Notes under the pieces: model-generated
Seen by the model: the letters and a program-made list of their open reading frames with translations, nothing else
Database searches by the model: none
What the model was told of the DNA's origin: nothing
Part shown: positions 1 to 18,828 of the stretch, one piece after another
Numbering within the stretch: the first letter of the stretch is position 1
Layout: every line of letters starts with the position of its first letter
Translations under genes and position numbers: made by a program
Source: Thermoplasmata archaeon
GTDB taxonomy: Archaea > Thermoplasmatota > Thermoplasmata > GCA-020350865
Direction: 5' to 3'
Assembly (NCBI GenBank): GCA_020348445.1
Contig: CP070751.1
Location: forward strand, 375,772 to 439,771
DNA: 64,000 bases

Positions 1-243
1 ACTGAAGACCAGATGGTCACCCTACACCGTGGCTGGAATCTTGTGGGTTATCCTTCTACAGGGAATATGAACAGAACAGAGGGACTGAACATTTTGACTT
101 TCCCAGATAATGTGAACGCGATCTGGACCTACGATGCATCCAGTCAGAGATGGGAGAGTATGGGCCCTGATGATGATTTTGAGGTGGGCAAGGGTTATTA
201 TGTCCATTCCAAGGATGATGTTATTTGGGAAGTGCCGCTATAA
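1..243 (+). CDS. 3' end of a secreted protein carrying the shared GWNL..P C-terminal module (5' truncated by window edge)
   Basis: Frame open from base 1 (TEDQMVTLHRGWNLVGYPS...KGYYVHSKDDVIWEVPL*); closely matches the C-termini of 3042-5138 and 25806-27404. Confidence 0.85.
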   Translation, partial: TEDQMVTLHRGWNLVGYPSTGNMNRTEGLNILTFPDNVNAIWTYDASSQRWESMGPDDDFEVGKGYYVHSKDDVIWEVPL

Positions 244-537
244 ATAATATATATAAAGTATTTTAAGTCAGTGCTAATATCTAACAACAATTATATAATT
301 CCAATGAAAATATTAAAAAAAAGTCAAAAAAAAAATATAATAATTATCTTATAATAAAAACCTAACAATAAATTTAAATATTTTGAAGACAATAAGCTTT
401 TGGAGATACAACTTAGGGTAAGCGATTATAGAGGGAGAAGAGAGTCACTTTAGGAATGAAACGGTTCATTGTTGTGAATCTTCCCTATTTTCGCATGCCT
501 TCGGGTTAGTTAAATCAAATAGATAGGAGGAAAAGAT

Positions 538-2985
538 ATGAGGAAATTGACCAAATTATTTGTGTGCGCGAACATTGTGATGATAACTGCTTTGGCTTTT
601 CTGGTGACAACATCTCCAAGGGCTAGTGCTGGAACTGTTGTGGGTGGCCCCATCGATAGTGACACAACTTGGGACATAGAAGGGAGCCCATATTGGATTG
701 TGGATGATGTAACTGTTGTCAATGGTGCGAACCTAACAATTGAAATCGGTGTGGATGTTTTATTCAATGGTTCTTTTGGCATATATGTAGAAGAGGGAGC
801 AATAATTTGGATTGTACAGGGCATATCTCAAAGAAATTATGCTCTATTTTCTTGGAATTCCGATTCGGGAGCACCATACCCGGGTCGATGGCATGGTATT
901 GAGTTCGAGGATTCGAGCTATGATTACTCTTCAATACGATACTCAGTGATTGAGTATGCTATCTATGGTGTGAAGTTGGAGAGAGCGTCCCCTTTGATCC
1001 GAAATTGCACAATCAGAAACTGCACTTATGGTATCTATTCCTATTACGGCTCCCCAACAATCGAGAACAACACTATTGAGAATTGCACGGAAGAAGGTAT
1101 ATTTATAAGAGGTAAGGATCCTTCTAGTGGGTTTGTAAATATCGAAAATAACATAGTTTATAATAACACAAATCGAGGTATTGTTCTATATCTTACTTCT
1201 AATGTCAGACTCAGAAATAATAGTATTTCTAATAGCAGTTATAATTTCGGTGTATGGGGTATTGCATTTCCGAACTTCAACCATGATATAGACGCAACAA
1301 ATACTGTGAATAAGAAACCCATATATTATTGGAGGAATCATGAGCATGACAATGAACCTATACCCTTCAACGCGGGTTATGTTGGCATCATAAATTCGAC
1401 GAATATCACAGCAGTAAATTTAACTCTAACTAATAATGGGCAGGGTGTTTTGGTTGTTCAATCGAATCATACAAATATAGATAATGTGACCGCATCATTT
1501 AATGAATTTGGTATGTATATGTTATTACCCTCTTACAGCACCGTAAATAACAGTAATGTTACATTTAATAAAAATACCGGCATAGATATTCAATCATCAT
1601 CAAACATCAATATAACTTATAATAATGTTACTTCGAATAATGAGGGCGGTATCTCTATCATTTCATCATCTAACTTAAATATAACTGATAATAATGTTTC
1701 TTTGAACATTGGTAGTGGTATTGGTATTGGGTCTTCATCAGATGTTCATTTAATAAACAACATTTTCACCTCGAACAACGGCAATGGCGTTTCAATTGGA
1801 TCATCATCTAATATTAAAATTCTGGATAACTCAATAATCTCAAACAACGTGGAGGGCATTAATCTCCAAGATTCAAATGATAACATAATAATTAACAATG
1901 ATGTGGAGTCAAATACATTTAATGGCATATACCTCTACCAATCAAGCAGGAACAACCTTTCATCTAACGAGATTATATTTAATTATGATGGAATACTTGT
2001 AAGGGACTCAGACTGGAATAATATAACAGGAAACAACATATCCTCAAACACCAAAGATGGCATCTTTTTTGATTACTTTTCTGATAGAAACAATATTACT
2101 AGTAATAATATTACTTCTAATGACAGATATGGTATATTTATCTGCTGGCTGTCAGATTGGAACAACATTGAAGATAATAATATCTCCTATAACTTTGATG
2201 ATGGTCTCTTAATATTAGACTCTGATTGGAACAATATTACGGGTAACGATATTTTATCAAACAACGGTCATGGTATATTTTTTTGTTATTCATCAAATAA
2301 CATGATTTTGAATTCCTATGTTTCTAACAATGATAACGGTATAAGGTTCCTTTCTTCTGACGATAGTACCGTGTCAAATTGCGAAATGTTGAGCAATAAC
2401 TATGGCATTTATGTTAAGTCTTCATCTAACATCGAAATAACCAAGACAAATATCTCGAATAATAACAATGGTATTCGTTTGGAATCCACGTCAAATATTA
2501 ACACCTCGTTGTGTAATATATCATTGAACAATTATTATGGTGTCAGAGCAGAAGCTGCCGATTGTGTCCTTTACAACGATATAATTGGGTGGAATGGACA
2601 TATTGGTGTTAAATGCGCTGGAAATAGTGATCTAACTATTAAAGACAACATTGTAGTATATAATGAAATTGCAGGCATTAATTGCTCAGGAAGTGCCCCA
2701 ACCATTACCTACAACGATATAGAAAACAATACATGGTATGGTATAGGAAGCAAAGACGGGAGCAACCCGACCATTAACTACAATAATATTTGCAATAATG
2801 GAGGAGGGTCCTCTGGGCCCGGGTATGGAGTTATCAATACTTATTCCTCAATAACGATAGATGCGGAGAATAATTGGTGGAACGCTGCTAGTGGACCATA
2901 CCATCCGGTTGATAATCCCGGTGGTACAGGCGATAAAGTTTCAAGTTATGTAGATTTTGATCCATATTCAAATGCGAGATTTTAA
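538..2985 (+). CDS. Secreted right-handed parallel beta-helix (NosD/CASH-type) repeat protein
   Basis: GGAGG RBS upstream; N-terminal signal peptide; many NNxIxxNxxxGIxL repeats; ends in IDAENNWW..SGP..VDFDP cap motif; many N-x-S/T sequons. Confidence 0.85.
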   Translation: MRKLTKLFVCANIVMITALAFLVTTSPRASAGTVVGGPIDSDTTWDIEGSPYWIVDDVTVVNGANLTIEIGVDVLFNGSFGIYVEEGAIIWIVQGISQRNYALFSWNSDSGAPYPGRWHGIEFEDSSYDYSSIRYSVIEYAIYGVKLERASPLIRNCTIRNCTYGIYSYYGSPTIENNTIENCTEEGIFIRGKDPSSGFVNIENNIVYNNTNRGIVLYLTSNVRLRNNSISNSSYNFGVWGIAFPNFNHDIDATNTVNKKPIYYWRNHEHDNEPIPFNAGYVGIINSTNITAVNLTLTNNGQGVLVVQSNHTNIDNVTASFNEFGMYMLLPSYSTVNNSNVTFNKNTGIDIQSSSNINITYNNVTSNNEGGISIISSSNLNITDNNVSLNIGSGIGIGSSSDVHLINNIFTSNNGNGVSIGSSSNIKILDNSIISNNVEGINLQDSNDNIIINNDVESNTFNGIYLYQSSRNNLSSNEIIFNYDGILVRDSDWNNITGNNISSNTKDGIFFDYFSDRNNITSNNITSNDRYGIFICWLSDWNNIEDNNISYNFDDGLLILDSDWNNITGNDILSNNGHGIFFCYSSNNMILNSYVSNNDNGIRFLSSDDSTVSNCEMLSNNYGIYVKSSSNIEITKTNISNNNNGIRLESTSNINTSLCNISLNNYYGVRAEAADCVLYNDIIGWNGHIGVKCAGNSDLTIKDNIVVYNEIAGINCSGSAPTITYNDIENNTWYGIGSKDGSNPTINYNNICNNGGGSSGPGYGVINTYSSITIDAENNWWNAASGPYHPVDNPGGTGDKVSSYVDFDPYSNARF

Positions 2986-3041
2986 TGGAGTTTCAATAAA
3001 TTATAATACGAACTTATATACTTAAAAGGAAATATATATGC

Positions 3042-5138
3042 GTGATGTTAGAAATGAGGAAGTTACTTTCAATCATGGTGATAGTTGTATTTGTAGTCAT
3101 GATTACCAATTCAAATAACAATACTTTGAGCATTAGAGCTGAGACCTTTACTTCAAATATAATTATCGAAAATAATCTATCAGTTCAAGTCCAACCCTCG
3201 ATCACTGTTGATGAGTTTGATAATGTCTACGTTGTCTGGCGTGACTATAGAAATGATCCAAGTCTTCCATCCAATGGTCGCGGTGATATATATTTTGCTA
3301 GATCTATTGATGACGGTTTATCTTTTAACATTTCTCAGAAAGTTAGTGATGACCCAGGAGATGCACAACAAAATATACCTTCTGTTGCAATAGATTCCAA
3401 TGGGGTAATCCACGTTGTATGGGAAGATTGGCGGAACGATGCCGATGGGAGATGGGTGGGTAGCGATGGTGGAATTGATGGTTTGAACAACAGTGATATT
3501 TATTATGCGAATTCATCTGATGGTGGCATAACATGGAGTACAAGTAAAATGATAAACGATGACGGTGGCACAACAGATCAAGGTAGCCCTGATATTACAA
3601 TTGATAACAATGATATGATTCATATAGTATGGGAAGATAGGAGAAGGGTTGACAATTTCGATATCTATTATGCAAATACTACGGATGGAGGAAGAACCTT
3701 TAATGTAAATAAAAAAATCAATGATGTAGATAGTGCTTCGAGAGATCCTGCTATTGATGTTGATCATATGAATAATTTACATATAGTTTGGACAGACTAT
3801 AGAAACACAGGGGTTACAGGTCCAGATATTTATTATGCGAATTCAACAGACAGTGGAATAACTTTTAGTACAAACATTAGGGTAAGTGATGATATAACTA
3901 ACACATATCAATTCTGGCCAGATATAGCGGTTGGTGGTGGCATTATTGGGATTGTGTGGGAAGATCAAAGAGAAACCAGTGTGTATTATGCGAATTCAAC
4001 TGATGATGGAATTACTTTCAGTTCGAATAAAAGGGTCAATGATGTTATTGGTGCATCCAACTGGGATGCGGCAATTGCCATAAATAAAGATGGATATATT
4101 TGCGTAGCTTGGGAAGGTAAGGATAATGATATTTATTTTGCAAATTCTACAGATGGGGGTGCAACATTCAGCCCAGCTCAGAGGGTAAATGATGATATTG
4201 GTTCTAATTTTCAACGTTTAGCTTCAATAGCTCTAAAAAAAAGAACATCTTATATCGTATGGCAGGATAACAGAAACGGTAACTATGATATCTATTTTTC
4301 CCGCTCAAATTATCCTCCATCTATAACTACACCAATTTCTCTACCTAATAATTCCATTATAACGAATGATACGATGACACTGGTGGTCACCTCAGTCACC
4401 GATCTAGACAACGATACAGTCTATTACAATTTCACAATTTCAGATCAACCTGATGCCGAAAGCGGCACTATTTACTATAGTGGTTGGATAAAATCAACGT
4501 CTTGGAAACCTCCCCCACTGCCCGACGGTAAATGGTATTGGCACACATATACATCAGATATGTGGAATACAACTGCTCCGAATTGGGTCTGGAATTTTAC
4601 AATCAATACCACTCTAAGTTATAGCATCCAGCTTTATGAGGGTTGGAACCTGATCTCGATTCCCATTATTCAGATTGATACAAAATTGGAAAGTGTACTT
4701 GATTCTATAAACGGTTCCTACGATGCCATCCAATGGTATAACGCTGGAGATAACTCCGATAATTGGAAACACCACCAAATATCAAAACCATCTGAATTGA
4801 ATGATTTAGGGATTATCGACCATATAATGGGCTTTTGGGTACATGTAACTCAACCTGGCGGAGTTTTATTACGATGTTCTGGGATAATACCGAATGAAAA
4901 TCAGAGTATAACCTTAAAAACAGGTTGGAATCTTGTAGGATACCCCTCATTGAGCAATAAAAGTAGAACCTTGGCCTTAAACAATCTTACCTTTGACACC
5001 GATATAGATGCGATCTGGACATACAATGCCTCTAACCAAAAATGGGAAAAGATAGGTGAGTTCGATTACTTTGAAAAGGGGAGAGGTTATTATATTCATT
5101 CCAAGGACGATGTAATTTGGGAAGTGCCGTTTCAATAA
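3042..5138 (+). CDS. Secreted BNR/Asp-box (exo-sialidase-like) beta-propeller protein with shared GWNL..P C-terminal module
   Basis: Signal peptide; about six repeats of DIYYANSxDGGxTFSxxxxVNDD with VxVWEDxR; Ig-like spacer; C-terminal module from ~4618. Confidence 0.8.
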   Translation: MMLEMRKLLSIMVIVVFVVMITNSNNNTLSIRAETFTSNIIIENNLSVQVQPSITVDEFDNVYVVWRDYRNDPSLPSNGRGDIYFARSIDDGLSFNISQKVSDDPGDAQQNIPSVAIDSNGVIHVVWEDWRNDADGRWVGSDGGIDGLNNSDIYYANSSDGGITWSTSKMINDDGGTTDQGSPDITIDNNDMIHIVWEDRRRVDNFDIYYANTTDGGRTFNVNKKINDVDSASRDPAIDVDHMNNLHIVWTDYRNTGVTGPDIYYANSTDSGITFSTNIRVSDDITNTYQFWPDIAVGGGIIGIVWEDQRETSVYYANSTDDGITFSSNKRVNDVIGASNWDAAIAINKDGYICVAWEGKDNDIYFANSTDGGATFSPAQRVNDDIGSNFQRLASIALKKRTSYIVWQDNRNGNYDIYFSRSNYPPSITTPISLPNNSIITNDTMTLVVTSVTDLDNDTVYYNFTISDQPDAESGTIYYSGWIKSTSWKPPPLPDGKWYWHTYTSDMWNTTAPNWVWNFTINTTLSYSIQLYEGWNLISIPIIQIDTKLESVLDSINGSYDAIQWYNAGDNSDNWKHHQISKPSELNDLGIIDHIMGFWVHVTQPGGVLLRCSGIIPNENQSITLKTGWNLVGYPSLSNKSRTLALNNLTFDTDIDAIWTYNASNQKWEKIGEFDYFEKGRGYYIHSKDDVIWEVPFQ

Positions 5139-6120: not shown

Positions 6121-6984
6121 ATGGAAGAAGAAAGTGAACAGCAACCCAAAATTAGATCAGATGAGCCACCGCCTCCCAGAAACGGTTTCACACATCCGAT
6201 ATATCCCAAACAAACACCGGAATCCTCAACCCCTTCGCAACCTCTTTATTCCTGGGAGTTGTTACCATGGGAGGCAAGGGAGCATTTAAGGTCCAAAAAG
6301 GGGAGGAACCCAGTTTTTGTTATCATAGGAGTTTTTCTTATTATCATCTTCGCCTTGGAAATCCCCATAGCAGGATTGTTTTTTTATTACGGCTCAACAG
6401 ATGGTTTGGACTTTGGAGGGAATATTACACTTTCTGGAAATGTTCAGGGAGAAGACGGAACCAATCTATCAGGTGCGACAATATCCATCATCGGTACAAA
6501 TCTTACCACGACTTCCGATGAAAAGGGTAAATACACCTTAGAAAACGCCCCAAGAGGTATTTGGAGTGTAAGGGTCTTTCACGTTGGTTACAAGGAGGAA
6601 ACACGCAGGATACTCATACAACAAGGTTTTATAGATTCATTGGATTTCAAACTCGAAGAAGGTGTGGGAAACCGGAAACAAAACGACCTCTGGTATTTCT
6701 TCAGCCTGGCCATACTCATGCTGCTTTTCTCACCTTTCGTTGTGGCTGGTTCATATTACGCTTTTAAAAGAAGGCGTTTTGCTGTTGTCCTGGTGGGGGC
6801 AATTTTGGGTATTCTCACAATGACCCCCTCATTTGTTTTCGAGTTCTCGCTACTCGTTTTCATTCTGGGCTCTTTGGGTTTTATCTTAAGTATATCTGCT
6901 TTGATGATGATCGTTATGAATAGGAGGGCGTTTTTAGAAAGGGAGTATAAAATTATATCTGAAGAAGAGGACAAATCCATCTAA
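6121..6984 (+). CDS. Membrane protein with a carboxypeptidase-regulatory-like domain
   Basis: Pro-rich N-terminus, TM helix, LSGNVQGEDGTNLSGATISI...GKYTLENAPRG domain, then about three C-terminal TM helices. Confidence 0.75.
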   Translation: MEEESEQQPKIRSDEPPPPRNGFTHPIYPKQTPESSTPSQPLYSWELLPWEAREHLRSKKGRNPVFVIIGVFLIIIFALEIPIAGLFFYYGSTDGLDFGGNITLSGNVQGEDGTNLSGATISIIGTNLTTTSDEKGKYTLENAPRGIWSVRVFHVGYKEETRRILIQQGFIDSLDFKLEEGVGNRKQNDLWYFFSLAILMLLFSPFVVAGSYYAFKRRRFAVVLVGAILGILTMTPSFVFEFSLLVFILGSLGFILSISALMMIVMNRRAFLEREYKIISEEEDKSI

Positions 6985-7023: not shown

Positions 7024-10000
7024 TTAATCAATGGTGCCTGAAGTTCCGCAATGCGGGCACTCAATCATCCGGGGTCCCGCCATTACCTCGACCATAAATG
7101 ATCTGCCGCAGGAGGGGCATTCTATCTCTTCTTGATCCACCTTGGGTTTTCCTTCATGTCTATCCGATACTTCCTCTTGCTCCTTTGTCTTGATCACTAT
7201 CGTTCCTACCTCAGGTGATGCCTCGCGTTCCTTTCTTTGTGCAGGCGCCCTTTGTGTCACTTTTTGAAATCCCAAATATGCTTCCTCATCACCCAGGACA
7301 GCAGGGGGTTTTCTTTGGGTGATAAACATGAAGATTATCCCGAAAACGATCAGGGCGGTTATTAAAATCCACCACCACCAAAATGGTTCCAAAGACCTTG
7401 ATTTATCAAGAGGATAGTAATCTTTACTGTCGGCGACACCATCGCCATCATCATCCCAATCTGCATTGTTGCCGATTCCATCAGAATCTGTATCCTCCCA
7501 CTCGTTGGGATCGTCAGGGAATTTGTCCTTATTATTTGAATTTAATACACCGTCACCGTCTCTGTCATCGTCTTGGTTGTCCCCCAGCCCATCAGAGTCG
7601 GAATCCCGCCATTCTGAGTTATCAAACGGAAATACATCACGTGAATCAGTTGTTCCGTCGTTGTCGTCATCTGAATCAGTATTGTCGCCGAAGCCATCTG
7701 AATCAGTGTCCCTCCATTCGAGGGCATCATTTGGGAATCTATCATATGTGTTTGCCACCCCATCCCCGTCCTTATCGTAATCTGTTTTATCTCCTATGCC
7801 ATCACCATCCAGATCAGAGGTTTCGCTTGCGTTGTACGGGAATGCATCGTTTGTGTTGAATACACCGTCCCCATCCGCATCCATATCCGAGTTGTCGCCA
7901 ATGCCATCGGAATCGGAATCAGAATATTCATCTGGATTCAGTGGGAATGCATCAGAAAAGTCCATTATGCCGTCACCATCATCATCCAGATCATCATTGT
8001 TACCCTGGCCGTCGGAATCAGAATCCATCCATTCATCATCATCCAATGGAAATTCATCATTTATGTCATATACTCCGTCACCATCGTCATCTAAATCCGC
8101 GTTATTACCAAGACCGTCGGAATCGGTATCCACCCATTCATTTGGATTGGCGGGAAAATCATCCTGTAAATCAGAGACTGCATCGTTGTCATCATCCAAA
8201 TCCATGTTGTCACCTATGCCGTCGCCATCATTGTCTTCCCATTCAGTGTTATCGTAAGGGAATGGATCATCTGGATTGTCCACACCATCGTTGTCTATGT
8301 CGGGATCTGCAAGATCGCCTATTCCATCGGAGTCAAAATCTGTGTTGTCCACGATAACTACAATGGAACCTTGTGCCACATGGCCTGCCAGATCAATTGC
8401 CCTGAACGTTAGTGTATGGCTTCCGTCAGTTTGGAATGTGGTGTCCCAAACAGTGTTATTATCAACCCAGCCCAGGCCATCCACACTGTACTCCACAGAA
8501 TCAATGAATAAATCAAAACCCCTGATGTCCATAACAACATTTCCTTTGACGTAATCCCCACTATGAGGCGAGATTATCGTCAATTGCGGCTGCGTGTTGT
8601 CGATGTTAAATGAAAAAGGTACAGTGGTCTGGGTATGGCTGGGTATTATGTCTTCGCAAGTTGCATATAGGTCATACGTACCGTCTGCGAAAGTAGTTGT
8701 ACCCATTAAAACTTCCCACAAGCCACTTACGCTGTTGTAACCTGTTGCATAATCGTTGCCAGATATCGTTATATACACGTTCGAGACTCCGATACCATCT
8801 GAAGCCGAAATCCCGAAAGTGTAGGTGCCCTGGAGGTACTCGTTGGCCACAGGTGATACGATAGATACAACAGGATAGTCGTTGTCCACTGTTATTGTAA
8901 CACTTTCTGTGACCACATGTCCTATATCGTCGTAAGCTCTGAATGTTATTGTGTAAACACCATATGATCGCGTTGTCGAATCCCATGTTCCAGTCCAACC
9001 CAAGATCTCAGAGCCTGAAAGCGCAGACCAGGCTCCGCTGTCTATTCGGAACTGAACCGTGGGAACAAAGATCCCGGAATCTGTGGAGTTCGCCTCCAAA
9101 GCCACGCTGGGCCCGTATAAAATCTGACTGTTTATTGGCGAGATGACAGACAGTGTGGGGGCGTTGTTGTCTATATAGAAATTGAACGAAATCGTAGTCT
9201 GGGTGTGAATTGGAATACCATCTTTTACTGTTGCGCTTAGGCCGTAAGTTCCATCCGTAATTGCCGTGGTATCTATTGTCACCTCCCATAAAAGGCTTGC
9301 GCTGTTGTACCCCATGACATAGTTGTCGGTATGTATCTGGATGTGCACCTCGGAAACATCCACATCATCAGAAGCCGATACCTTGAAGGTGTACGTACCC
9401 TGGACATATTCATTGGCCACTGGGGACACAACAGAGGCAGCAGGATCGTCGTTGTCCACTGTTACTGTGAGGCTGTCTGTGACCACATGACCGATTTCAT
9501 CGTAGGCTCTGACGGTTATTGTGTGGACACCGTTGGAGTACGCAGTGGAATCCCAGGAAGCAGGAAGTGTAATCCAATTACCACTGTCTATTCTGAACTG
9601 AACAATTAAAACAAAGTCTCCTTCATCTGTGGAATCCACATCCACAACCACATTCTCTCCGTACACAGTTTCCCCTTGCTGCGGTGAATTTATTGAAAGT
9701 GTTGGCTCGTTGTTGTCTATATAGAAATTGACAGAATCAGTAGTCTGAGTGTGACTCGAAATTCCATCCTTTGCAGTTGCAGTGATACTATATACACCAT
9801 CGAAAATCGTGGCGGTGTCCAATTCCATTTCCCACAAACCAGAAACACTGTTGTAACTTGTATTATAATCGTCGCCGTTTATGGTGATAGTGACATTTGT
9901 TATACCCACTTTATCAGAAGCCAGAATTTTGAAGGTGTAAACACCCTGAACAAATTCATTTTTAACAGGCGCAGAAATAGAAACAGTGGGATTATCATTG

Positions 10001-13000
10001 TCCACAGTCACAGTTATACTGTCAGAAACCAAATGCCCGATTTCATCATAGACCCTGAAGGTTATGGTGTGAACACTGTCTGAATGCATGGTTGAGTCCC
10101 ATGTTCCTGTCCATCCTTCGATCTCGGAGCCTGTTAGCGTGATCCATGCCCCACTGTCGATTTTGTATTGAACAACTAGAACAAAGGGCCCTTCGTCAAA
10201 TGAATCAGCATCAATTGAAACTGTGGAGCCGGTCACTGTTACACCGGCAAGAGGTGAATTGATAGATAATACAGGTTCTGTATTGTCCACGTTGAAATCC
10301 AAGGTTGATGTCACCTGGGTGTGACTTGGAATGCCGTCTTGGGCTGTGGCTGTAATTGAGTAATACCCATCTCCTAAAACTGTTGTGTCTATTTCCACCT
10401 CCCACAGACCAGTTACACTGTTGTAACCTGCTGTATAATCGGTACTGTTTATTGTGATATAGACATTTGTTACCCCCACATCATCTGATGCCAGGATCTT
10501 GAAGGTGTAAACACCCTGGACATATTCATTTGCTAGAGGCGCAGAAATAGAAACAGTGGGATTATCATTGTCCACAGTCACGGTTATACTATCCGTGACC
10601 AAATGTCCGATTTCATCATAGGCCCTGAAGGTTATGGTGTGAATCCCATTTGAATAAGCTGTTGAATCCCAGGATCCTGTCCATCCTATGATCTCAGAGC
10701 CTGTTAATGTGATCCATGCCTCGCTGTCGATTTTGTATTGAACAACGGGAACAAAAGGCCCTTCATCATATGAACTTGCATCTATTGAAACTGTGGAGCC
10801 GGTTACTGTTTCACCCGCAAGCGGTGAATTAATAGACAAAACAGGTTCTGTATTGTCCACGTTGAATTCTAAGGCCGATGTTGTCTGGGTGTGGATTGGA
10901 ATACCGTCTTCGGCTGTGGCTGAAATTGAGTAATACCCGTCTCCCATTGCTGTTGTGTCTATTTCCACCTCCCACAGACCACTTGCGCTGTTGTAACCTG
11001 TGGAATAATCATTTCCATTTACTGTGATATAAACATTTGTTATGCCCACATCATCGGAAGCTGATACCTTGAATGTGTAAGAACCGTAAATCCACTCGTT
11101 CCCAATGGGTGCCACTATTGTTACTCTGGGATCATCATTGTCCACAGTTATTGTAACTGTGTCAGAGACCATGTGAACCATGTCATCGTATGATCTTACG
11201 GTTATGCTATGTATCCCGTTAGAGACAGTTGTGGAATCCCACACATCAGACCAATCTAAAAGTTCGGAGCCAGATAAGGTCACCCATGCTCCTGAATCGA
11301 TTCTGTACTGGACAGTGGGAGAAAAGATACCCGGATCAACAGATTCGACGTCTATAAAAATGGTTGTTCCATAAACTGTTACGCCGTTTTCCGGGGAATA
11401 TATCGAAAGTGTAGGTGGTGTGTTATCCACGTAAAATCCTGTGGCTAGAGAGTCCTGTGCACTATTTTTCGCGTAATCCCAAGCCTCGGCACTTAAGGTG
11501 TGAAGACCATCTGATAATGTGGTGGTGTCGATTGCATATTCATAATAACCGCTTGACGGATTGAGAGCTGTTTTATACACTATACCATCCAGAGTGATAT
11601 TCACATACTCAAGTGCATAGTTATCTGTGGCATGAATCTGTATAGTATATGAACCTTCAATGTATTCTAAATCAGTGGGTGAGATTATAGAAATCGAAGG
11701 TGGTATCACATCATTAGATATGTAGACGTCACAGAAGTCGGTGTCTGTATTACCCATATCATCAGTAACTTTTGTTAGAACCCTTGTCATGCCCTCGGGA
11801 TGCAACGTGGTGTCCCAGGAGTAGGTGTATGTATTTCCACCTGCAAATGTCATTGTGTGATAAGTTGCCCCGTAATCAAAGGAAACCTCCACCAAATCCA
11901 CCAAAAAGTCATCCTGTGCAGTTGCTTGGATGATCAGTGTACCTCCAACTGTCTGCCCTTCCTTTGGATAATCCAAGGTTATGGTTGGCGCTATGTTGTC
12001 CGGTACAAGAAGAACATCTACTGAATAAGTATCTGATAGGATCAGAAGGTCCTGCCATGAGCCTGTGGTCCTTCCGTCGTCAGTGTAGTATCCCTGTAAA
12101 CTAAAGACCAGATCATAGGCTGAATTGGACTTCATAGCGATCTGATAGGAGCCATCGGCCTTAGTTTCCGTGCTGACAACGAGATTTCCAAGGGTGTCAT
12201 AGACCTGGACGACCACGTCCTCAAGGGAGTCGCCTGTTATGGAGTCGTTCACATATCCAAATACGAAGTTTCCTGTTTGGGTGAGATATTGATCCCAACT
12301 CTCTATGGTATCTCCGCCTGCGATGTTGATACCAGTATTTGAGTTCGTATCATTTAAAATAGCGTATCCCCAATATGTTGTTGAACTTCCCACTGAAATC
12401 CAATAATCGCCATCGATGGGTGCATCAAGTGCATATTCACCGTCTGGGCTAGTTATGCAATAATCCAGGGGATGGTTGGTTTGCGCAAACATAAAGTATT
12501 TACCTTGTGAATTGATGAAATCGATTACGAAGGTGTGAGGATCAAAGGGTAAAGATGCTGCAATGGAAAATGAAGAGCCCACGTTTAACATGGACTCATC
12601 AGAGAGATCATAATCCTCGTCACAATCAATAAACACTGTTTCGTAGTAACCAGATAGCAGATTGTCCACCACTAATGCATAATAGATGTCGAGCATGTCC
12701 CCATCCTGATTGAGGTTGATTGAAAGAGACGATTCTGAGATAGTGCCATAGTGTATCGCATTGGTCAATGAAATATCGTTTTTCGAGCTTAAAATTATAT
12801 CCAAGAAGGCGGTGATTTTAATGAATGTGCCCGAATCCTCAATATTTATGATTTGGTACATGGTGCCATTAAGATTGACTGTCCCGCTTGTCTCTGTTAA
12901 TCCGAGCACATCCCAGACACCATCGCTTGGATAATCGGTATCGAAATCAGCACAATCAAATATGGAGTCGCCGTCGATATCGCTTAGGAGTACATAGTAG

Positions 13001-16000
13001 GTATCCCCGGAAAGCGGAGGTACCTCGACCTTCCCGAAAAACCAGCTTTCAGTCAAGCCAACACTGGTGCCTGTGGGTTGTATCTCAAAGTACCTGCCTG
13101 AAGAATCGAGGCTCACCAAGGTGTATTGTATCTTCAATTGGCTGCCCTGAAATATGTCAGATGGTTGAAGGGCCATGGCATCCACTCCCACATCCTCGAA
13201 GTCGCCATCATCGTTTAAGTCGATGTACACCTCGTCAAATAGGCCATCTGAATCTAAATCAGAAACTACGGCATCCCGTAAATTCCCCTCCAAAAGTGCA
13301 CTACCTGAGAACCAATGGCTGATCGTTATGACCGTGTCATTTACATCATAATTTACACCATCGTTTACACCTACACCGTCACCTAGATTGTCGTACGATT
13401 GAACATGATATCTGTAGGTGCCGAGGACCACGAATTCTCCTCCCAGATCACGGATTACTTCATCGTTGTCCACTTGGCTTATTTGATCCCCTACATCTCC
13501 GGGAGGTTCGGCAAATATGTCGTCATCTGTGGTAATTTCCATGTAATAGTTATAGAGTCCTTTGGATTTAAAATCAGATAATGCGAATTTCATACCGTCG
13601 ATATTCACAATTCCATCACCATCAACATCTATGGTGAAAGCACCAACATACCACTCAACGCTCAATATCCGAGCATCGTACGAATCCACGATCCCTGGAT
13701 TGTTTCTGAACTCCACACTAAATAACAACGAATCGCCCAGGGTGATGTTGGAGGATGCTGTAATTAGTTCGTCGTTAAGATTATTGGTATCGTCATAATA
13801 GTCCACGATACCGTCCATAAGGGTACCTTCGTCAGTTTCCCTGAATGTGGCGTCGTTTATTGACATGTCCATTGTATCGTAAAGTCCGTCTGAGTTCACA
13901 TCAGTCAGGAAGTAAAGCACTTTGTCATCCTGGATTCCATCGTCATCCTCATCATCGGCATCTATTTCAAATGAGCCATGGTACCACTCGTAAATCAGTA
14001 TCTGCACGTCATTCTCATCTGACTCTGGTGTTGAATCGAAGTTAACTTTGAAAAGCAATGAATCTCCCAATGTCATGCTCGCGTTTTCAGTTACCCGCTC
14101 ATCGTTGTTGTTGTCGTCTGGATTTTGGTAATTTACGATGTCATCTGATAAGGATCCAGAGCCGGTCTCTCCAAAATCCTTATCCTCTATGGAGATGTCC
14201 AAGGTTTCATATATCCCGTTGGAGTCGGTATCTGACAAGACAAAATAAACCTCGTCATCTGCTGCGCCATCGTCGTCTGCATCTATTGTAAATGCTCCTT
14301 CATACCACATACTGCTTCCGATCCTGATATCGTCAGAATCCTGATTGGGGGCGTCGTCGAACTCCACCAAGAATGTATATATATCTCCTAATTTGACGTA
14401 TGCTGATGCTGTTATTTGCTCATCGTTGGTGTTGTCCGATTCATCAAAATCCACATAATTATCGTTTAAATCCCCCTCTCCATAGGTCTCATCCCCTATG
14501 GAGATTTCCAGAACCTCGTACAAACCATCAGAATCTGTATCCACGAGCACAAAATGAACATTGTCATCTGCCAATCCATCATCGTCGCAATCGATTTGAA
14601 GATCCCCTTCATACCATTCTAAGCTTGTGATTCTCGCATCATCAGAATCCAGGTTCGGGCCCGAATCAAATTCACAAGAAAACAAGAAATAAATCCCCAA
14701 TGTGATGTTCGTTGTTGCTGTGATTTGCTCATCATTTGAATTATCGCTTGTTGAAAAATCTACTATGAAATTACCAAGATCCCCTTCCCCGTAAACCTCA
14801 TCACCCATCGATATATCCATGGCCTCGTATATTCCATCTGAATTCGTGTCCGTAAGGACATAGTAGACGTTGTCCGCTTCCACAATGCCGTCTCCATTTC
14901 CATCGATTGTGAAGGTTCCCAAATACCACTCGTTGCTTTTAATTCTCGCATCTTTGGAATCTGTTGGAGGGGCAGCGTCAAAATCAACTGAGAACTCCAG
15001 CAGATCTCCCAAATTAAGGAATTCGGAGGCTGTTATGCGCTCATCATCACCTGTTGTCACATTGTCGTTATCCAGAGTTCCCTGACCATAGGTCGCATCC
15101 AATGATAAGTCCATTGTGTCATATGTACCATTGGAATCTGTGTCCGTCAAAACAAAATAAACCTTATCATCTGCAGCACCGTCGTTGTCTGCGTCGATTG
15201 TGAAGCTGCCTTCGAACCATTCTAGACCCTGAATCTGAGCATCGTTTGTGTCCACATTGGGTGCTGAGTCAAATTCACAGGTGAAATTATAAAAATCACC
15301 CAATTTGATGTTCCTGGAAGTTGTTATTTGCTCGTCATTTATATTGGCAGTTTCGCCAAAATCCACATAATTGTCATTTAAGTCACCCTCGCCATAATCT
15401 TTATCCCCGATTGAAATGTCCATGACCTCATACAATCCTTCAGAATCTGTATCTGAAAGAACAAAATATACATCGTCATCGGCGAGCCCGTCCCCGTCGG
15501 CATCGATTGTGAATGCTCCTTCATACCACTGGTTGCTTGTTATTCTGGCATCCACGCCATCCAGATTCGGGGAGCCATCGAAGGCAACAGTAAATTGGTA
15601 ATGATCACCCAGGATGATTTTTACAGATGAAGTCAAGCGTTCATCGTCCATGTTGTCACTTTCGCTGAAATCCACGGTGGAATTGCTGATCCCTCCCTCT
15701 CCATAAACCTGATCGCCCATTGATATGTCCATAGCCTCGTACATTCCATCTGAATCTGTGTCCGAAAGGACATAATAGACGTTGTTTGCCTCCACTGTTC
15801 CATCACCATTGCCATCTATTGTGAATGTGCCCAGGTACCACTCGTTGCTTGTTATTCTGGCATCATCGGAATCCAAAACCGGTGAGAAATCAAAATCCAT
15901 CTCAAATTCAAAGGAATCGCCAATTGTTACGAATCCAGAGGCTGTTATTTGCTCATCATCAACTGTCGTCACAATATCGTCGTCTAAGGTTCCCTGACCA

Positions 16001-18828
16001 TATGTCATATCAAATGATATGTCCATGGTGTCATAGGTGCCGTTGGAATTGGTATCTGACAAAACAAAATAAACTATATCATCTGCCGCGCCGTCGTCAT
16101 CTGCATCGATTGTGAAAGTCCCTTCATACCACTCTTTGCTCGTGATTTGAGCATCGTTTGTATCTACATTCGGTGCTGCGTCAAATCCCACTGTAAACAG
16201 ATAATAGTCACCTAAAGTGATATCTGTCTGGGTTGTTATGCGCTCATCGTTTGTGTTGCCTGTGGCTCCGAAATCAACAGAATTGTCGTTAACATCACCC
16301 TCATCATATTCTTCGTCTCCAATTGAAATGTCCATGGCTTCATAAAGTCCATCGGAGTCTGTATCAGAGAGGACATAATAAACATCATCATCTACAAAAC
16401 CGTCACCGTCTGCATCCAATGCGAAAGTTCCTTTGTACCATTCGGTGCTCATAATACTGGCATCGTCCGAATCCACATTGGGCCCCCTGTCAAAATCCAC
16501 GAGAAACTGGTAATAGTCCCCTAATGTGATATTTGTGAAGGCCGTAATAAGCTCATCATCAGTGTTGCCTGTGGTTCCGAAGTCAACTATAAAATTGCCG
16601 ACATTCCCCTCTCCATAAACCTCATCACCAATGGAAATGTCCATGGCATCGTAGACCCCGTCTGAATTGGTGTCGGAAAGAACAAAGTAAACATTCTGCG
16701 TCTCCACAGTCCCGTCTCCGTCCCCATCTATTGTGAAGTTTCCTTTGTACCACTCATTACTTTGAATTCTGGCATCGTTCGTATCTACTGTGGGTGAGGA
16801 ATCAAATTCAACTGAAAACTCCAATGAATCACCAAGTGTAAGAAAATCCGAGGCTGTTATTCCCTCATCATTTCCCGTGGTAACGTTGCCGTCGTCCAAA
16901 TCCCCCTGGCCATAGGTGGAGTCCAAAGATAGATTCATTGTATCATATACACCGTCTGAGTCCATGTCAGATAAAACAAAGTAAATTACATCGTCTGGGA
17001 GACCGTCATCGTCGGCATCTATTTCGAAGGTGCCGTTGTACCATTCCTTGATCTGAAGTGTGGCATCAGGATTTGTGGAATTTGGGTTGTTAATAAAATT
17101 TACTATAAAAAGATAGGTATCAAGTGTTGCATTCATTCCAGACATGTCTATTTGCTCATCATTGTCTGTTGAGGTAGCATCATCGTCCAAGGTCCCTTCT
17201 CCAAAGACATCATCGTCAGTGGATAGATCTATTGTGTCGTAGATGCCGTCCGAATCAGAATCTGAAAGCGTATAATTCACGTACTCTGAGCTTCCGATGA
17301 TGCCATCTCCATTTACATCGATGTTAAAGGAGCCTGTATACCATTGGGTGGAGTTAATCCATGCATCTTGGGATGTTGCAGATGGATCTGATGTGAAATT
17401 AACTGTGAAGTTGTAGATACCCAAAATCACGACTTCCTCGTCAGTAATACCCTCGTCATTACCTGGACCCAGGAACTGGTCGCTTCGATCCCCGTCTACA
17501 AAACTCGAAGGATCCTCATAAGAGAGGTTCATTATATCGTAAACCCCAGTCGTTGTATTGTCAGTTAATACAAAGTATATCACATCATCGTAAACTCCAT
17601 CGCCGTCATCATCCCCCTCGATTGTAAACCATCCTACATACCATGTATTAGATTTGCTCCCAGGAGCACCATTAGGCTGTATTCCAGTACTGGTTGTATC
17701 TGTGGAATTTATGGAAATTATAATGGATCCCGAGGGGGATGTTAACGTTGCCGTGGCAACGCTGGTTTGGTTCGTGGGGTATATAAGGCCGTTGGGTTTT
17801 GTGTTGTTTGCCTGGGTATCTGAGGTTTGAGGGGATATAGATGCAGTTGTGCCCGAAGGAGGTGTATTTATATCCTGAGTATCTGACCTCTGGGGATTTA
17901 CAGTTGCAGAACCTGATGGCGCCGAATTTGTAGCAATGGTATCGTTGGTCTGGGGAGTTATGCCCGCAGAGCCTGAGGGCTGCGAATTTGTATCAGAAGT
18001 GTCTGCGGTCTGAGGTGAAATCGAAGCAGTCGAGCCAGATGGATCGGTATTTGTGGGCGTGGTGTTTGAATCCTGAGAATTTATGGTTGCAGTTCCTGAG
18101 GGTGCGGAATTTGTCTCAGTTGTATCCCCGGTCTGGGGATTTATCCCCGAGGCTCCTGTAGGTTGCGAGGCCACTCCAGTTGAATCTGCAGATTGGGGTG
18201 TAATGGATGCAGAGGAACCTAGAGGCTGGGTATTTGTATCGGTGCTGTCTGAGTTTTGAGATGAAATGGTTGCGGTGCTTCCAGAAGGTGGGAGATTGGT
18301 TGCCGTGCTCTCTGTGCTCTGGACGTCGGTTGCGGCGGAGCCAGAAGGCTGGGTCGTCGTCATTAGCGAGTCATTTACCTGGGGGTTGGATAAGGTTATG
18401 CCTGTAAGTGGAGTGTTGAGGGCAATGGAATTGTCGTTTTGATAGTTGTTCGAAATACCCAGATTTGATGGCTTAGTGTTTTGGGCTTCCGAATTGCTGA
18501 AAATTGGTGCTGAATCAGTAACACCTGTTGGTTGCGACAATATGGAGGTGGATGTAGTCCAAGTTCTCTCTGTCTCCATTAGCAAATCGCTTTGGATCGT
18601 GGTAATTACGTTGGGTGTGTCAACATCTATGTAGTTGTATAACTCCACCCTGGCTTGACCCACAGGATAGCCATTGGAATTGTATACTGTTCCTGTGATT
18701 TCGCCCCCTTTTGCGGCGCTTGCTGTTGGTGCAATAGCCATCAACACCACAAGAATTATCGCTCCTATCAGAGAGCCTTTCTTCCCTATTCTAGCAAAAG
18801 CTTCATTCATACCATGATAATTCGCCAT
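7024..18828 (-). CDS. Giant (3934 aa) membrane-anchored surface protein: split carboxypeptidase-regulatory-like domain with 2-kaa insert, second such domain, 13 Ig-like domains, TSP3 repeats, TM helix, cytoplasmic Zn ribbon
   Basis: Single uninterrupted ORF; GGTGA RBS; signal peptide ending ASA; WWWWILITALIVFGIIFMFI TM; CPSC...CPHC tail. Confidence 0.9.
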   Translation of the reverse strand: MANYHGMNEAFARIGKKGSLIGAIILVVLMAIAPTASAAKGGEITGTVYNSNGYPVGQARVELYNYIDVDTPNVITTIQSDLLMETERTWTTSTSILSQPTGVTDSAPIFSNSEAQNTKPSNLGISNNYQNDNSIALNTPLTGITLSNPQVNDSLMTTTQPSGSAATDVQSTESTATNLPPSGSTATISSQNSDSTDTNTQPLGSSASITPQSADSTGVASQPTGASGINPQTGDTTETNSAPSGTATINSQDSNTTPTNTDPSGSTASISPQTADTSDTNSQPSGSAGITPQTNDTIATNSAPSGSATVNPQRSDTQDINTPPSGTTASISPQTSDTQANNTKPNGLIYPTNQTSVATATLTSPSGSIIISINSTDTTSTGIQPNGAPGSKSNTWYVGWFTIEGDDDGDGVYDDVIYFVLTDNTTTGVYDIMNLSYEDPSSFVDGDRSDQFLGPGNDEGITDEEVVILGIYNFTVNFTSDPSATSQDAWINSTQWYTGSFNIDVNGDGIIGSSEYVNYTLSDSDSDGIYDTIDLSTDDDVFGEGTLDDDATSTDNDEQIDMSGMNATLDTYLFIVNFINNPNSTNPDATLQIKEWYNGTFEIDADDDGLPDDVIYFVLSDMDSDGVYDTMNLSLDSTYGQGDLDDGNVTTGNDEGITASDFLTLGDSLEFSVEFDSSPTVDTNDARIQSNEWYKGNFTIDGDGDGTVETQNVYFVLSDTNSDGVYDAMDISIGDEVYGEGNVGNFIVDFGTTGNTDDELITAFTNITLGDYYQFLVDFDRGPNVDSDDASIMSTEWYKGTFALDADGDGFVDDDVYYVLSDTDSDGLYEAMDISIGDEEYDEGDVNDNSVDFGATGNTNDERITTQTDITLGDYYLFTVGFDAAPNVDTNDAQITSKEWYEGTFTIDADDDGAADDIVYFVLSDTNSNGTYDTMDISFDMTYGQGTLDDDIVTTVDDEQITASGFVTIGDSFEFEMDFDFSPVLDSDDARITSNEWYLGTFTIDGNGDGTVEANNVYYVLSDTDSDGMYEAMDISMGDQVYGEGGISNSTVDFSESDNMDDERLTSSVKIILGDHYQFTVAFDGSPNLDGVDARITSNQWYEGAFTIDADGDGLADDDVYFVLSDTDSEGLYEVMDISIGDKDYGEGDLNDNYVDFGETANINDEQITTSRNIKLGDFYNFTCEFDSAPNVDTNDAQIQGLEWFEGSFTIDADNDGAADDKVYFVLTDTDSNGTYDTMDLSLDATYGQGTLDNDNVTTGDDERITASEFLNLGDLLEFSVDFDAAPPTDSKDARIKSNEWYLGTFTIDGNGDGIVEADNVYYVLTDTNSDGIYEAMDISMGDEVYGEGDLGNFIVDFSTSDNSNDEQITATTNITLGIYFLFSCEFDSGPNLDSDDARITSLEWYEGDLQIDCDDDGLADDNVHFVLVDTDSDGLYEVLEISIGDETYGEGDLNDNYVDFDESDNTNDEQITASAYVKLGDIYTFLVEFDDAPNQDSDDIRIGSSMWYEGAFTIDADDDGAADDEVYFVLSDTDSNGIYETLDISIEDKDFGETGSGSLSDDIVNYQNPDDNNNDERVTENASMTLGDSLLFKVNFDSTPESDENDVQILIYEWYHGSFEIDADDEDDDGIQDDKVLYFLTDVNSDGLYDTMDMSINDATFRETDEGTLMDGIVDYYDDTNNLNDELITASSNITLGDSLLFSVEFRNNPGIVDSYDARILSVEWYVGAFTIDVDGDGIVNIDGMKFALSDFKSKGLYNYYMEITTDDDIFAEPPGDVGDQISQVDNDEVIRDLGGEFVVLGTYRYHVQSYDNLGDGVGVNDGVNYDVNDTVITISHWFSGSALLEGNLRDAVVSDLDSDGLFDEVYIDLNDDGDFEDVGVDAMALQPSDIFQGSQLKIQYTLVSLDSSGRYFEIQPTGTSVGLTESWFFGKVEVPPLSGDTYYVLLSDIDGDSIFDCADFDTDYPSDGVWDVLGLTETSGTVNLNGTMYQIINIEDSGTFIKITAFLDIILSSKNDISLTNAIHYGTISESSLSINLNQDGDMLDIYYALVVDNLLSGYYETVFIDCDEDYDLSDESMLNVGSSFSIAASLPFDPHTFVIDFINSQGKYFMFAQTNHPLDYCITSPDGEYALDAPIDGDYWISVGSSTTYWGYAILNDTNSNTGINIAGGDTIESWDQYLTQTGNFVFGYVNDSITGDSLEDVVVQVYDTLGNLVVSTETKADGSYQIAMKSNSAYDLVFSLQGYYTDDGRTTGSWQDLLILSDTYSVDVLLVPDNIAPTITLDYPKEGQTVGGTLIIQATAQDDFLVDLVEVSFDYGATYHTMTFAGGNTYTYSWDTTLHPEGMTRVLTKVTDDMGNTDTDFCDVYISNDVIPPSISIISPTDLEYIEGSYTIQIHATDNYALEYVNITLDGIVYKTALNPSSGYYEYAIDTTTLSDGLHTLSAEAWDYAKNSAQDSLATGFYVDNTPPTLSIYSPENGVTVYGTTIFIDVESVDPGIFSPTVQYRIDSGAWVTLSGSELLDWSDVWDSTTVSNGIHSITVRSYDDMVHMVSDTVTITVDNDDPRVTIVAPIGNEWIYGSYTFKVSASDDVGITNVYITVNGNDYSTGYNSASGLWEVEIDTTAMGDGYYSISATAEDGIPIHTQTTSALEFNVDNTEPVLSINSPLAGETVTGSTVSIDASSYDEGPFVPVVQYKIDSEAWITLTGSEIIGWTGSWDSTAYSNGIHTITFRAYDEIGHLVTDSITVTVDNDNPTVSISAPLANEYVQGVYTFKILASDDVGVTNVYITINSTDYTAGYNSVTGLWEVEIDTTVLGDGYYSITATAQDGIPSHTQVTSTLDFNVDNTEPVLSINSPLAGVTVTGSTVSIDADSFDEGPFVLVVQYKIDSGAWITLTGSEIEGWTGTWDSTMHSDSVHTITFRVYDEIGHLVSDSITVTVDNDNPTVSISAPVKNEFVQGVYTFKILASDKVGITNVTITINGDDYNTSYNSVSGLWEMELDTATIFDGVYSITATAKDGISSHTQTTDSVNFYIDNNEPTLSINSPQQGETVYGENVVVDVDSTDEGDFVLIVQFRIDSGNWITLPASWDSTAYSNGVHTITVRAYDEIGHVVTDSLTVTVDNDDPAASVVSPVANEYVQGTYTFKVSASDDVDVSEVHIQIHTDNYVMGYNSASLLWEVTIDTTAITDGTYGLSATVKDGIPIHTQTTISFNFYIDNNAPTLSVISPINSQILYGPSVALEANSTDSGIFVPTVQFRIDSGAWSALSGSEILGWTGTWDSTTRSYGVYTITFRAYDDIGHVVTESVTITVDNDYPVVSIVSPVANEYLQGTYTFGISASDGIGVSNVYITISGNDYATGYNSVSGLWEVLMGTTTFADGTYDLYATCEDIIPSHTQTTVPFSFNIDNTQPQLTIISPHSGDYVKGNVVMDIRGFDLFIDSVEYSVDGLGWVDNNTVWDTTFQTDGSHTLTFRAIDLAGHVAQGSIVVIVDNTDFDSDGIGDLADPDIDNDGVDNPDDPFPYDNTEWEDNDGDGIGDNMDLDDDNDAVSDLQDDFPANPNEWVDTDSDGLGNNADLDDDGDGVYDINDEFPLDDDEWMDSDSDGQGNNDDLDDDGDGIMDFSDAFPLNPDEYSDSDSDGIGDNSDMDADGDGVFNTNDAFPYNASETSDLDGDGIGDKTDYDKDGDGVANTYDRFPNDALEWRDTDSDGFGDNTDSDDDNDGTTDSRDVFPFDNSEWRDSDSDGLGDNQDDDRDGDGVLNSNNKDKFPDDPNEWEDTDSDGIGNNADWDDDGDGVADSKDYYPLDKSRSLEPFWWWWILITALIVFGIIFMFITQRKPPAVLGDEEAYLGFQKVTQRAPAQRKEREASPEVGTIVIKTKEQEEVSDRHEGKPKVDQEEIECPSCGRSFMVEVMAGPRMIECPHCGTSGTID
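7400..8345 (-). repeat. Thrombospondin type-3-like Ca-binding repeats (~33 aa, about ten copies)
   Basis: DxDxDGxGDNxDxDDDxDGVxDxxDxFPxDxxEWxD pattern. Confidence 0.85.
8345..12000 (-). repeat. 13 tandem bacterial Ig-like domains alternating A/B in a ~570-bp two-domain unit
   Basis: DNxxPxxxIxSP starts; near-identical DNA 570 bp apart (gcagaaatagaaacagtgggattatcattgtccacagtca at 9971 and 10541). Confidence 0.85.
12475..17643 (-). repeat. 17 tandem ~100-aa acidic repeats (WYxGxFxIDxDxDG...VYFVLSDxDSDGxY...GEG...DExIT...LGD..F...FD..P..D..DAxI)
   Basis: Each unit starts W(Y/F)xG; units 3-11 form three copies of a triplet; units 15-17 are degenerate. Confidence 0.9.
17644..18627 (-). repeat. 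About 16 Ser/Thr-rich ~20-aa segments ending P-x-G
   Basis: Examples STASISPQTADTSDTNSQPSG and SAGITPQTNDTIATNSAPSG; triplet periodicity. Confidence 0.85.

Follow-up and report, generated by a model that had tools for sequence, protein, structure and literature searches.

In the stalk of the streptococcal AgI/II proteins, A3 pairs with P1 in an antiparallel arrangement in the crystal structure (PMC3707005, citing Larson et al. 2010). In these proteins (SpaP, SspB, AspA and BspC), a single chain leaves the base and returns to it, with a distal element at the turn; its two repeat arrays, which differ in unit size, associate antiparallel in a long stalk, and their repeat numbers are therefore matched. 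Here we describe a gene of the same general design from a Thermoplasmata archaeon. It encodes a giant surface protein, P0001, and lies within a stretch of 64,000 nucleotides (hereafter, the window) from contig CP070751.1 (assembly GCA_020348445.1, positions 375,772 to 439,771), part of a genome assembled as a single 5.16-Mb contig. We consider it likely that the 2150 distal residues of the protein, a surface fibril with a membrane anchor, form one intramolecular hairpin rod, in which short unit n of an outgoing array pairs with long repeat n of a returning array, both counted from the turn. This reading was supported by every computational test run, at the level of sequences and of models.

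The resemblance to AgI/II, the nearest analogue found, is in design only. No sequence relation between P0001 and AgI/II was found with Pfam, NCBIfam or a PDB profile, and the hallmarks of that family (Ala-rich A repeats, Pro-rich P repeats, a V domain and LPXTG) were not seen in the P0001 translation or among its Pfam and NCBIfam matches. AgI/II stalks wind an alpha-helix around a polyproline II (PPII) helix, bear a V head at the tip and end in an LPXTG anchor, in Gram-positive bacteria. By comparison, P0001 is archaeal, has beta-domains of ~100 amino acids (aa) that would hold 20-aa strand units, lacks a head, would close its hairpin with a split sandwich and carries a predicted C-terminal membrane span. 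A first-pass annotation of this DNA, which had proposed such a nested hairpin, stated that no described protein was alike. Given AgI/II, the length-matched hairpin stalk is not without precedent as a design principle (PMC3707005); for the beta-domain version the statement stands, and no prior description of this architecture was found in open-access papers. There is a fair chance that P0001 belongs among hairpin stalks as a class of its own.

Three other systems share single elements with P0001. In RTX adhesins (AhLap, FrhA, MpIBP), the chain leaves an Ig-like sandwich after the first strand or first few strands to form a protruding passenger, then comes back to finish the sandwich (PMC12077191, PMC10865825). 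Each of their passengers is one globular ligand-binding domain (~17-30 kDa) whose termini lie side by side, whereas that of P0001 would be a two-array hairpin of 2052 residues. P0001 showed no Pfam match to such adhesin features, and neither RTX nonapeptides nor a type I secretion signal were seen in it; it has an N-terminal signal peptide. In fibronectin-binding proteins, consecutive F1 modules each receive one short strand from a disordered repeat peptide, antiparallel and in register (PMC3105298, PMC2978626). This tandem beta-zipper likewise places one strand on each of a series of small beta-domains, but it forms between a pathogen peptide and a host module string, whereas in P0001 both partners lie in one chain and their copy numbers co-evolve. 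Finally, in archaeal threads a strand from outside a domain joins its sheet (PMC9715654), as also happens in chaperone-usher pili. These donor strands join separate subunits into a polymer and supply what the acceptor fold lacks; in the P0001 family, acceptor repeats also occur without a donor array, and pairing is modelled within one chain.

A predicted base domain split by two repeat arrays

Directly after the signal peptide, P0001 carries the first ~25 residues of a carboxypeptidase-regulatory-like (CarboxypepD_reg) beta-sandwich (N-half motif, aa 42-66, nucleotides 18631-18705). The second-half motif follows only at aa 2119-2146 (from nucleotide 12474), and an intact copy of the domain begins at aa 2188. 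The insert between the two halves thus spans aa 67-2118 (2052 aa), far above the 17-30 kDa of RTX passengers (PMC12077191); it is the largest split-domain insert that we found described. The first-pass annotation had located the two halves and counted the intervening residues correctly to within one base, the start of the second half exactly.

Profile coverage of the two pieces was complementary. Against PF13620, a profile of ~82 positions with a cutoff of 32.3 bits, the N piece of P0001 matched positions 2-23 (16.1 bits, E = 0.014), the C pieces of two orthologues matched positions 29-56 and 29-58 (12.5 and 12.8 bits, under the cutoff) and the intact neighbouring copy matched positions 2-63 (35.2 bits, above it). 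The N and C pieces therefore cover different parts of the profile (N, 2-23 or 1-25; C, 29-56 or 29-58), and neither passes alone. Both halves were conserved in every relative that reaches them. The N-half is kept in 14 relatives and is near-invariant even in those only 30% identical overall; the C-half shows a conserved motif T..DG.Y.L followed by DG.YW in relatives that reach the region. The residues that immediately precede the C-half are part of the last long repeat.

In a complex model of aa 39-102 with aa 1929-2190, the interface score ipSAE reached 0.76, 0.74 and 0.82, and the best of three controls scored 0.00. For such models, 58 of 80 solved complexes attain the mark used, as do 2 of 110 mismatched pairs; these counts hold only roughly here, where each piece was supplied with our own alignment of orthologues; the sandwich fold is already known, and this likeness may account for part of the pass. 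The runs had at least 56% of contacts in common, with a predicted local distance difference test (pLDDT) score of at least 63 for the partner. The tightest contacts were strand pairs (aa 61-66 with aa 2142-2146, and aa 44-47 with aa 2132-2134), strand B of the N-half pairing with the Y-W-I-S-V strand of the C-half. In the conserved segment that follows the N-half, residues up to aa 86 contacted degenerate long repeats 16-17. The two half-domains are thus predicted to assemble as one sandwich with the expected strand pairing. Complementary profile coverage, conservation and the model (0.76 against 0.00 for the best control) support the earlier suggestion of a split domain with an intact copy behind it, including the docking of its halves that had been proposed as a check.

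Matched copy number and register of the arrays

The outgoing part of the insert (aa 67-394, 328 aa) consists of 36 conserved residues, 14 short units ending in P-x-G and an 8-aa junction. Ser and Thr make up 38% of the short array, which contains six N-glycosylation sequons. The returning part is acidic (24% Asp+Glu, 2.4% Lys+Arg). Its strong repeats scored 61-119 bits with a hidden Markov model (HMM) and carry two DxDxDG-like loops apiece, from which we infer putative calcium binding; three degenerate repeats at the far end are conserved in orthologues. The junction motif, A-P-x-S-x-S-G/N-T ahead of W-Y, was found in clades A, B (P0063) and C. The size of the insert, its 328-aa short part and its 17 long repeats agreed with the first-pass annotation, and the short units numbered 14 instead of the ~16 it had given.

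Both arrays have a period of three. Within the long-repeat types 3/6/9, 4/7/10 and 5/8/11 (indices counted from the junction), DNA identity was 66-74%, and between types it was 57-67% over indices 3-11. The period of the short units was weaker (73% for 5/8, 60% for 3/6, 66% for 6/10 and 63% for 4/7). Unit lengths follow the same scheme: from the junction, the short array has two units, k blocks of 21, 20 and 20 aa (one block 21, 21 and 20) and three further units, and the long array has two repeats, k blocks of 97, 104 and 103 aa and three further repeats. The 21-aa units and the 97-aa repeats thus share indices 3, 6, 9 and so on. The aperiodic flanks are two at the junction and three at the far end in both arrays, so that the phases agree solely in mirror order and not in parallel order. 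The block number was equal in both arrays in P0004 (k = 1), P0001 (k = 3) and P0002 (k = 6). The period is real: unit lengths and DNA identities confirm the period-3 homology first noticed over the same indices in both arrays, and the equality of k in three orthologues is beyond chance.

Orthology maps of the two arrays were parallel. In each of them, index 4 of P0004 corresponded to index 10 of P0001, and index 10 of P0001 to index 19 of P0002, the latter match being a three-way tie at 67% for the short unit; the last three units mapped onto the last three. The three-unit blocks appear to be old, at ~70% DNA identity. A tree-like order of duplication was also sought from the repeat identities within P0001, and no consistent order emerged because all blocks are ~70% alike.

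We then compared copy numbers among relatives. Long repeats were counted with an iterated HMM, and short units were recognised by their length and P-x-G ends; several of these counts were manual. Members of the family are rare: 1.8 billion proteins yielded 48 representatives at 50% identity, and of 401 genomes sampled from the class, the 3 that carry it belong to one genus. Relatives are recorded as Thermoplasmata archaeon and Methanomassiliicoccales archaeon, and the module was also found in a Chloroflexota protein. In the clade with the split domain, short units and strong long repeats numbered 8/8 in P0004, P0005, P0014 and L011, 9/9 in P0017 (31% identical), 14/14 in P0001 and 23/23 in P0002, each with three additional degenerate repeats. 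In a small clade without the split domain, where the short array begins directly after the signal peptide, the counts with the terminal repeat included were 4/4 (P0045), 5/5 (P0036, P0063) and 9/9 (P0020, P0058, P0059). Clades with another N-terminal domain had 8/8 (P0018), ~8/8 (P0019), ~6/6 (P0021), ~5/5 (P0023) and ~5.5/6 (P0024), with a BNR-like propeller between the arrays in P0021 and P0023 and an FG-GAP-like insert in P0024. In P0006-P0010 the short units fall into two arrays (8 + ~3), as do the long repeats (3 + 8 strong repeats), with equal totals. Over 13 distinct states, exceptions included, short and long counts correlated with a Spearman rho of 0.70, or 0.93 without P0044, among relatives that are not independent. 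The equal copy numbers that the first-pass annotation had predicted for homologues were thus found in most (8/8, 9/9, 14/14, 23/23, 4/4, 5/5) and fail in four (P0015, P0044, P0012 and P0027).

Length matching by itself would yield such a correlation if the split base domain were real and the short array merely a tether, long enough to span the rod and not bound unit by unit. Its composition, like that of a glycosylated linker, would suit this role, and long repeats are able to exist without a short array. However, a tether requires a minimum length alone, and twenty extended residues outspan one ~100-aa domain, so that exact 1:1 counts and type-for-type register would be unexpected. Moreover, the clade lacking the split domain, where there is no loop to be closed, still shows 4/4, 5/5 and 9/9, and AlphaFold2 (AF2) orders short units with pLDDT above 90. 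We therefore regard a tether as unlikely, and the one-to-one hairpin as the better account of the counts.

Modelled pairing of short units and long repeats

A whole hairpin of a small relative, P0063 (aa 12-610; five short units, four long repeats and one terminal repeat), was modelled by AF2 with a mean pLDDT of 89.8 and a predicted template modelling score (pTM) of 0.76. All five short units had pLDDT of 76-94, each with short strands. A truncated hairpin of P0001 (aa 226-796; eight short units and four long repeats; pTM 0.70) served as a control: aa 226-320 were disordered (pLDDT < 50, no structure), and aa ~325-395, units 3, 2 and 1 from the junction, were ordered (pLDDT 80-95) with two 3-residue strands per unit. 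In these models, how many units are ordered depends on how many long repeats are offered, from the junction outward. Long repeats had ~8 strands each. The folding of the junction region, which had been put forward as a check, thus came out as anticipated, with the junction-proximal short units ordered.

Structural alignments gave a consistent picture. VIA-align rows of single-domain size ran over residues 86..205, 66..303, 45..402, 25..504 and 5..590 of the P0063 model, and over 137-149..271, 126-129..370 and 104-110..468 of the P0001 model, where repeat 4 alone covered 467..571. Each paired range comprises one short unit and the long repeat of the same index. In an Atlas shape search, ~200 residues were aligned, spanning model residues 1 to 586-588.

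On this basis, we propose the following arrangement. After cleavage of the signal peptide, the first two CarboxypepD_reg-like strands would occupy the extreme N-terminus. The chain would head outward through the 36 conserved residues and fourteen Ser/Thr-rich units of 20/21 residues, turn at the 8-residue junction, return as 14 + 3 acidic domains of ~100 residues and finally provide the remaining strands of the base sandwich, closing the loop. Long repeat n would hold short unit n, which would give it two 3-residue strands, and the resulting intramolecular tandem beta-zipper would brace the domain string into a rod. Because each short unit would have a dedicated partner, the arrays could lengthen stably only in matched steps, the step here being the three-unit block. 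The rod would be carried by the single intact CarboxypepD_reg domain, the 13 Ig-like domains, the TSP3-like region and the membrane anchor, and would probably form the outermost portion of an adhesin-like or spacer fibril. Computation shows the architecture, its conservation, the matched copy numbers and the pairing in the models. The physical binding of units, the rigidity of the rod, its calcium binding and its cellular or adhesive role are what we would expect from this arrangement. An out-and-back hairpin in mirror order, with arrays that expand together, had been suggested at the outset, and it passed the computational tests available.

The short array could instead bind the long array of a neighbouring molecule, with the N-half completing the neighbour's C-half, to give dimers or networks by donor-strand exchange. 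Archaeal threads are known to join their subunits by donor-strand complementation (PMC9715654), and neither copy-number matching nor the complex models can distinguish pairing in cis from pairing in trans, the complex run having used two separate chains. Against this, the junction has just 8 residues, the single-chain models close the hairpin confidently (pTM 0.76 and 0.70), the protein is anchored to the membrane at its C-terminus, and pairing in cis would be entropically favoured. Exchange between molecules is in our view quite unlikely, and we continue with the intramolecular hairpin.

Several observations weigh against the intramolecular hairpin. All structural support is prediction. The AF2 alignments were natural contiguous junction-centred fragments of relatives, a choice of our own that retains any true covariation, and pairing was derived from pLDDT, from the strands assigned by DSSP and from the residues at which structural alignments begin and end. 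The fourth long repeat in the P0001 model was without a bound unit; binding may need the next repeat too, or the model may be unsure there. At the base, the C-half of P0001 itself had no Pfam match at E <= 10, and joining the N and C halves for a search with an HMM of the intact neighbour gave consecutive positions (3-29 and 37-58) with 2-10 bits, too weak to use. Copy numbers also have exceptions. P0015 has ~8 short units and 14 long repeats on a 363-kb contig, P0044 has ~10 short units and only 2 long repeats together with other domains, and the bacterial proteins P0012 and P0027 have 6 and 5 long repeats without a short array.

For P0015, the count of 14 is probably real, given the 363-kb contig, and an assembly artefact was set aside as its explanation. 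Eleven long repeats in its aa 298-1388 are up to 96% identical among themselves, suggesting a recent one-sided expansion. The first ~300 residues of P0018 are nearly identical to those of P0015, but P0018 has 5 + 3 long repeats. P0015 represents either an uncompensated recent expansion or an error. As an apparently uncompensated expansion it resembles an intermediate and would make the fitness cost of a mismatch directly testable.

The exceptions also bear on how a short unit would be held. P0012 and P0027 imply that the long repeat is probably an autonomous, complete fold and that pairing is not universal; together with the 8/14 protein, they point to strand addition and not to obligatory fold completion. 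It is more likely that a short unit adds two small edge strands to an autonomous domain than that it completes the fold. Of the strand complementation originally envisaged, the modelled addition of strands remains, and strict complementation is less likely, given the long repeats without a short array in P0012 and P0027 and repeat 4 without a unit. Similarly, one segment can be assigned to each of the 14 strong repeats; opposite the three degenerate ones lie only the 36-residue segment and the N-half.

A reading with no hairpin at all would take the N-terminal strands as vestigial, the short array as a disordered mucin-like spacer, the matching as ancestry plus chance and the models as over-confident. 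The single-piece Pfam scores under threshold, the copy-number exceptions and the few independent lineages, a consequence of the family's rarity (48 representatives; 3 of 401 genomes), would fit it. It does not sit with an N-half that is near-invariant across relatives down to 30% identity, with equal numbers seen repeatedly across three or more clades whose end domains differ and with blocks equal at k = 1, 3 and 6, or with a truncation control that behaves as pairing predicts and complex-model controls of 0.00. We consider the absence of a hairpin highly improbable.

Taking the hairpin as the preferred reading, we lean towards a class of stalk not described before: a tandem beta-zipper within one chain, whose one-to-one, mirror-order arrays are forced to expand and contract together (blocks of 1, 3 and 6), locked in one clade by a sandwich split by more than 2000 residues. 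If so, a chain that splints its own domain string would be a third way of stiffening surface fibrils, besides calcium-stiffened linkers and alpha/PPII hairpins. It would also be a case of coupled repeat evolution, in which two separate arrays in one gene keep equal copy number and register across species. The small members P0045 (638 aa) and P0063 (819 aa) are tractable for expression and structure determination.

The long-repeat family, relatives and gene layout

The long repeats (aa 396-2118) had no match in Pfam or NCBIfam, and the best hit in a profile search of PDB sequences had E = 0.63. Foldseek of the models against the PDB returned none at E <= 0.001, with multi-domain models as queries (a single-domain query might find more), and ESM Atlas searches by features and by shape gave no convincing known fold or family. 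The best VIA-align match was a segment of TPP II (3lxu; Z 6.6-7.0, root-mean-square deviation 2.8-3.3 A over 98-102 residues), and other rows were generic sandwiches at Z of 5 or below. By its sequence, the long repeat is a candidate new family of acidic ~100-aa domains for which Pfam has no model.

Some relatives carry additional domains. P0006-P0010 are laid out as short(8), long(3 + 3 degenerate), ~130 aa, short(3) and long(8 + 3 degenerate); in P0007 (aa 274-2560), a second junction motif and a second short array (~3 units, aa ~906-969) lie in the middle of the insert. The counts suggest that the second long array would be the partner of the outer short array and that the inner pair would extend the tip. 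A Pfam scan of the region between the arrays in P0006, P0007 and P0009 gave no matches. In P0007, InhA-like MAM domains (PF20773, 55.9 bits; aa 1181-1487 and 1689-1982) lie inside single long repeats, splitting them into a first part of ~75 aa and a last part of ~58 aa, a second level of domain-in-domain nesting. With MAM domains or propellers in or at the tip of the rod in relatives, the rod may be a general display scaffold.

In P0015, P0021, P0023, P0027, P0044, P0060, P0022 and P0012, the long array is followed by a conserved C-terminal domain of ~70 aa (..IEQTQIR.., then Q-Q-I or similar). Where the N-terminus is intact, most of these proteins also have an N-terminal membrane span and a sandwich-like domain ending in ..EVFW. 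By analogy with the split domain of P0001, the ..EVFW domain and the ~70-aa domain may meet at the base of the hairpin.

A metagenome scan with the N-terminal alignment found one contig of 3 kb, too short for counting. A genome scan found two congeners already known and a match to the N-half alone in a metagenome-assembled genome (MAG) of a Bryobacterales bacterium (L012, locus 10001-10150; 40% identity, E = 3e-5). In the orthologue L010 (CP070739.1, Methanomassiliicoccales archaeon bin396), a scaffold gap of 100 N (locus 14161-14260) lies inside the long array, which is uncountable; the annotation of L010 as a partial protein of 1425 aa is an assembly effect of this gap.

The features of the giant gene are collected in Table 1. 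N-termini equivalent to its signal peptide look alike in all full-length relatives. The Big_7 and Big_3_3 scores of the Ig-like stalk are above threshold. The TSP3-like region also matched an NCBIfam MtsC-like model with 78.5 bits, far under the cutoff of 350, and the NCBI record of the orthologue P0004 is titled 'thrombospondin type 3 repeat-containing protein'. The tail ends in a CxxC...CxxC zinc ribbon (Zn_ribbon_4, 17.4 bits, below cutoff). A zinc-ribbon cytoplasmic tail is unusual in a surface fibril and hints at a connection to the cell interior.

Table 1 Features of the gene for P0001, with residues of the protein and positions in the window.
Feature	Residues (aa)	Window position	Strand	Basis
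P0001, giant surface-protein open reading frame, 3934 aa		7024..18828	minus	
Probable signal peptide	1-38	18715..18828	minus	Translation: hydrophobic core, A-S-A ahead of mature end
N-half of split CarboxypepD_reg-like beta-sandwich, first two strands	39-66	18631..18714	minus	PF13620 below cutoff, conservation, complex model
Conserved segment, 36 residues	67-102	18523..18630	minus	Conserved alignment columns; faces degenerate repeats
Short array, 14 units of 20/21 aa ending P-x-G	103-387	17668..18522	minus	
Junction, predicted hairpin tip, 8 aa	388-395	17644..17667	minus	
Long array, 14 strong acidic repeats of 97-113 aa each	396-1838	13315..17643	minus	
Three degenerate long repeats, indices 15-17	1839-2118	12475..13314	minus	Weak HMM matches, 6-18 bits
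C-half of split CarboxypepD_reg-like domain	2119-2186	12271..12474	minus	
Intact CarboxypepD_reg domain	2187-2277	11998..12270	minus	PF13620 35.2 bits as isolated piece, cutoff 32.3
Ig-like stalk	2278-3493	8350..11997	minus	PF17957 (Big_7) 270.7 bits, 13 stretches; PF13750 (Big_3_3) 116.3 bits
Thrombospondin type-3 (TSP3)-like Asp-rich repeats	3494-3809	7402..8349	minus	PF02412 24.7 bits, 5 stretches, cutoff 25
Predicted membrane anchor, cytoplasmic tail of ~97 aa and stop	~3816-3837 (anchor)	7024..7401	minus	Span inferred from hydrophobicity

Convergent with the giant gene and 40 bases from its end, a plus-strand gene (window 6121-6984) encodes a 287-aa protein with one CarboxypepD_reg domain (51.5 bits). 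Two more probable surface proteins are encoded upstream, on the plus strand at 538-5138, one of 815 aa with a right-handed beta-helix (NosD-like) and one of 698 aa (BNR-like). The G+C content of the region of these two genes is 0.35, compared with 0.44 in the giant gene.

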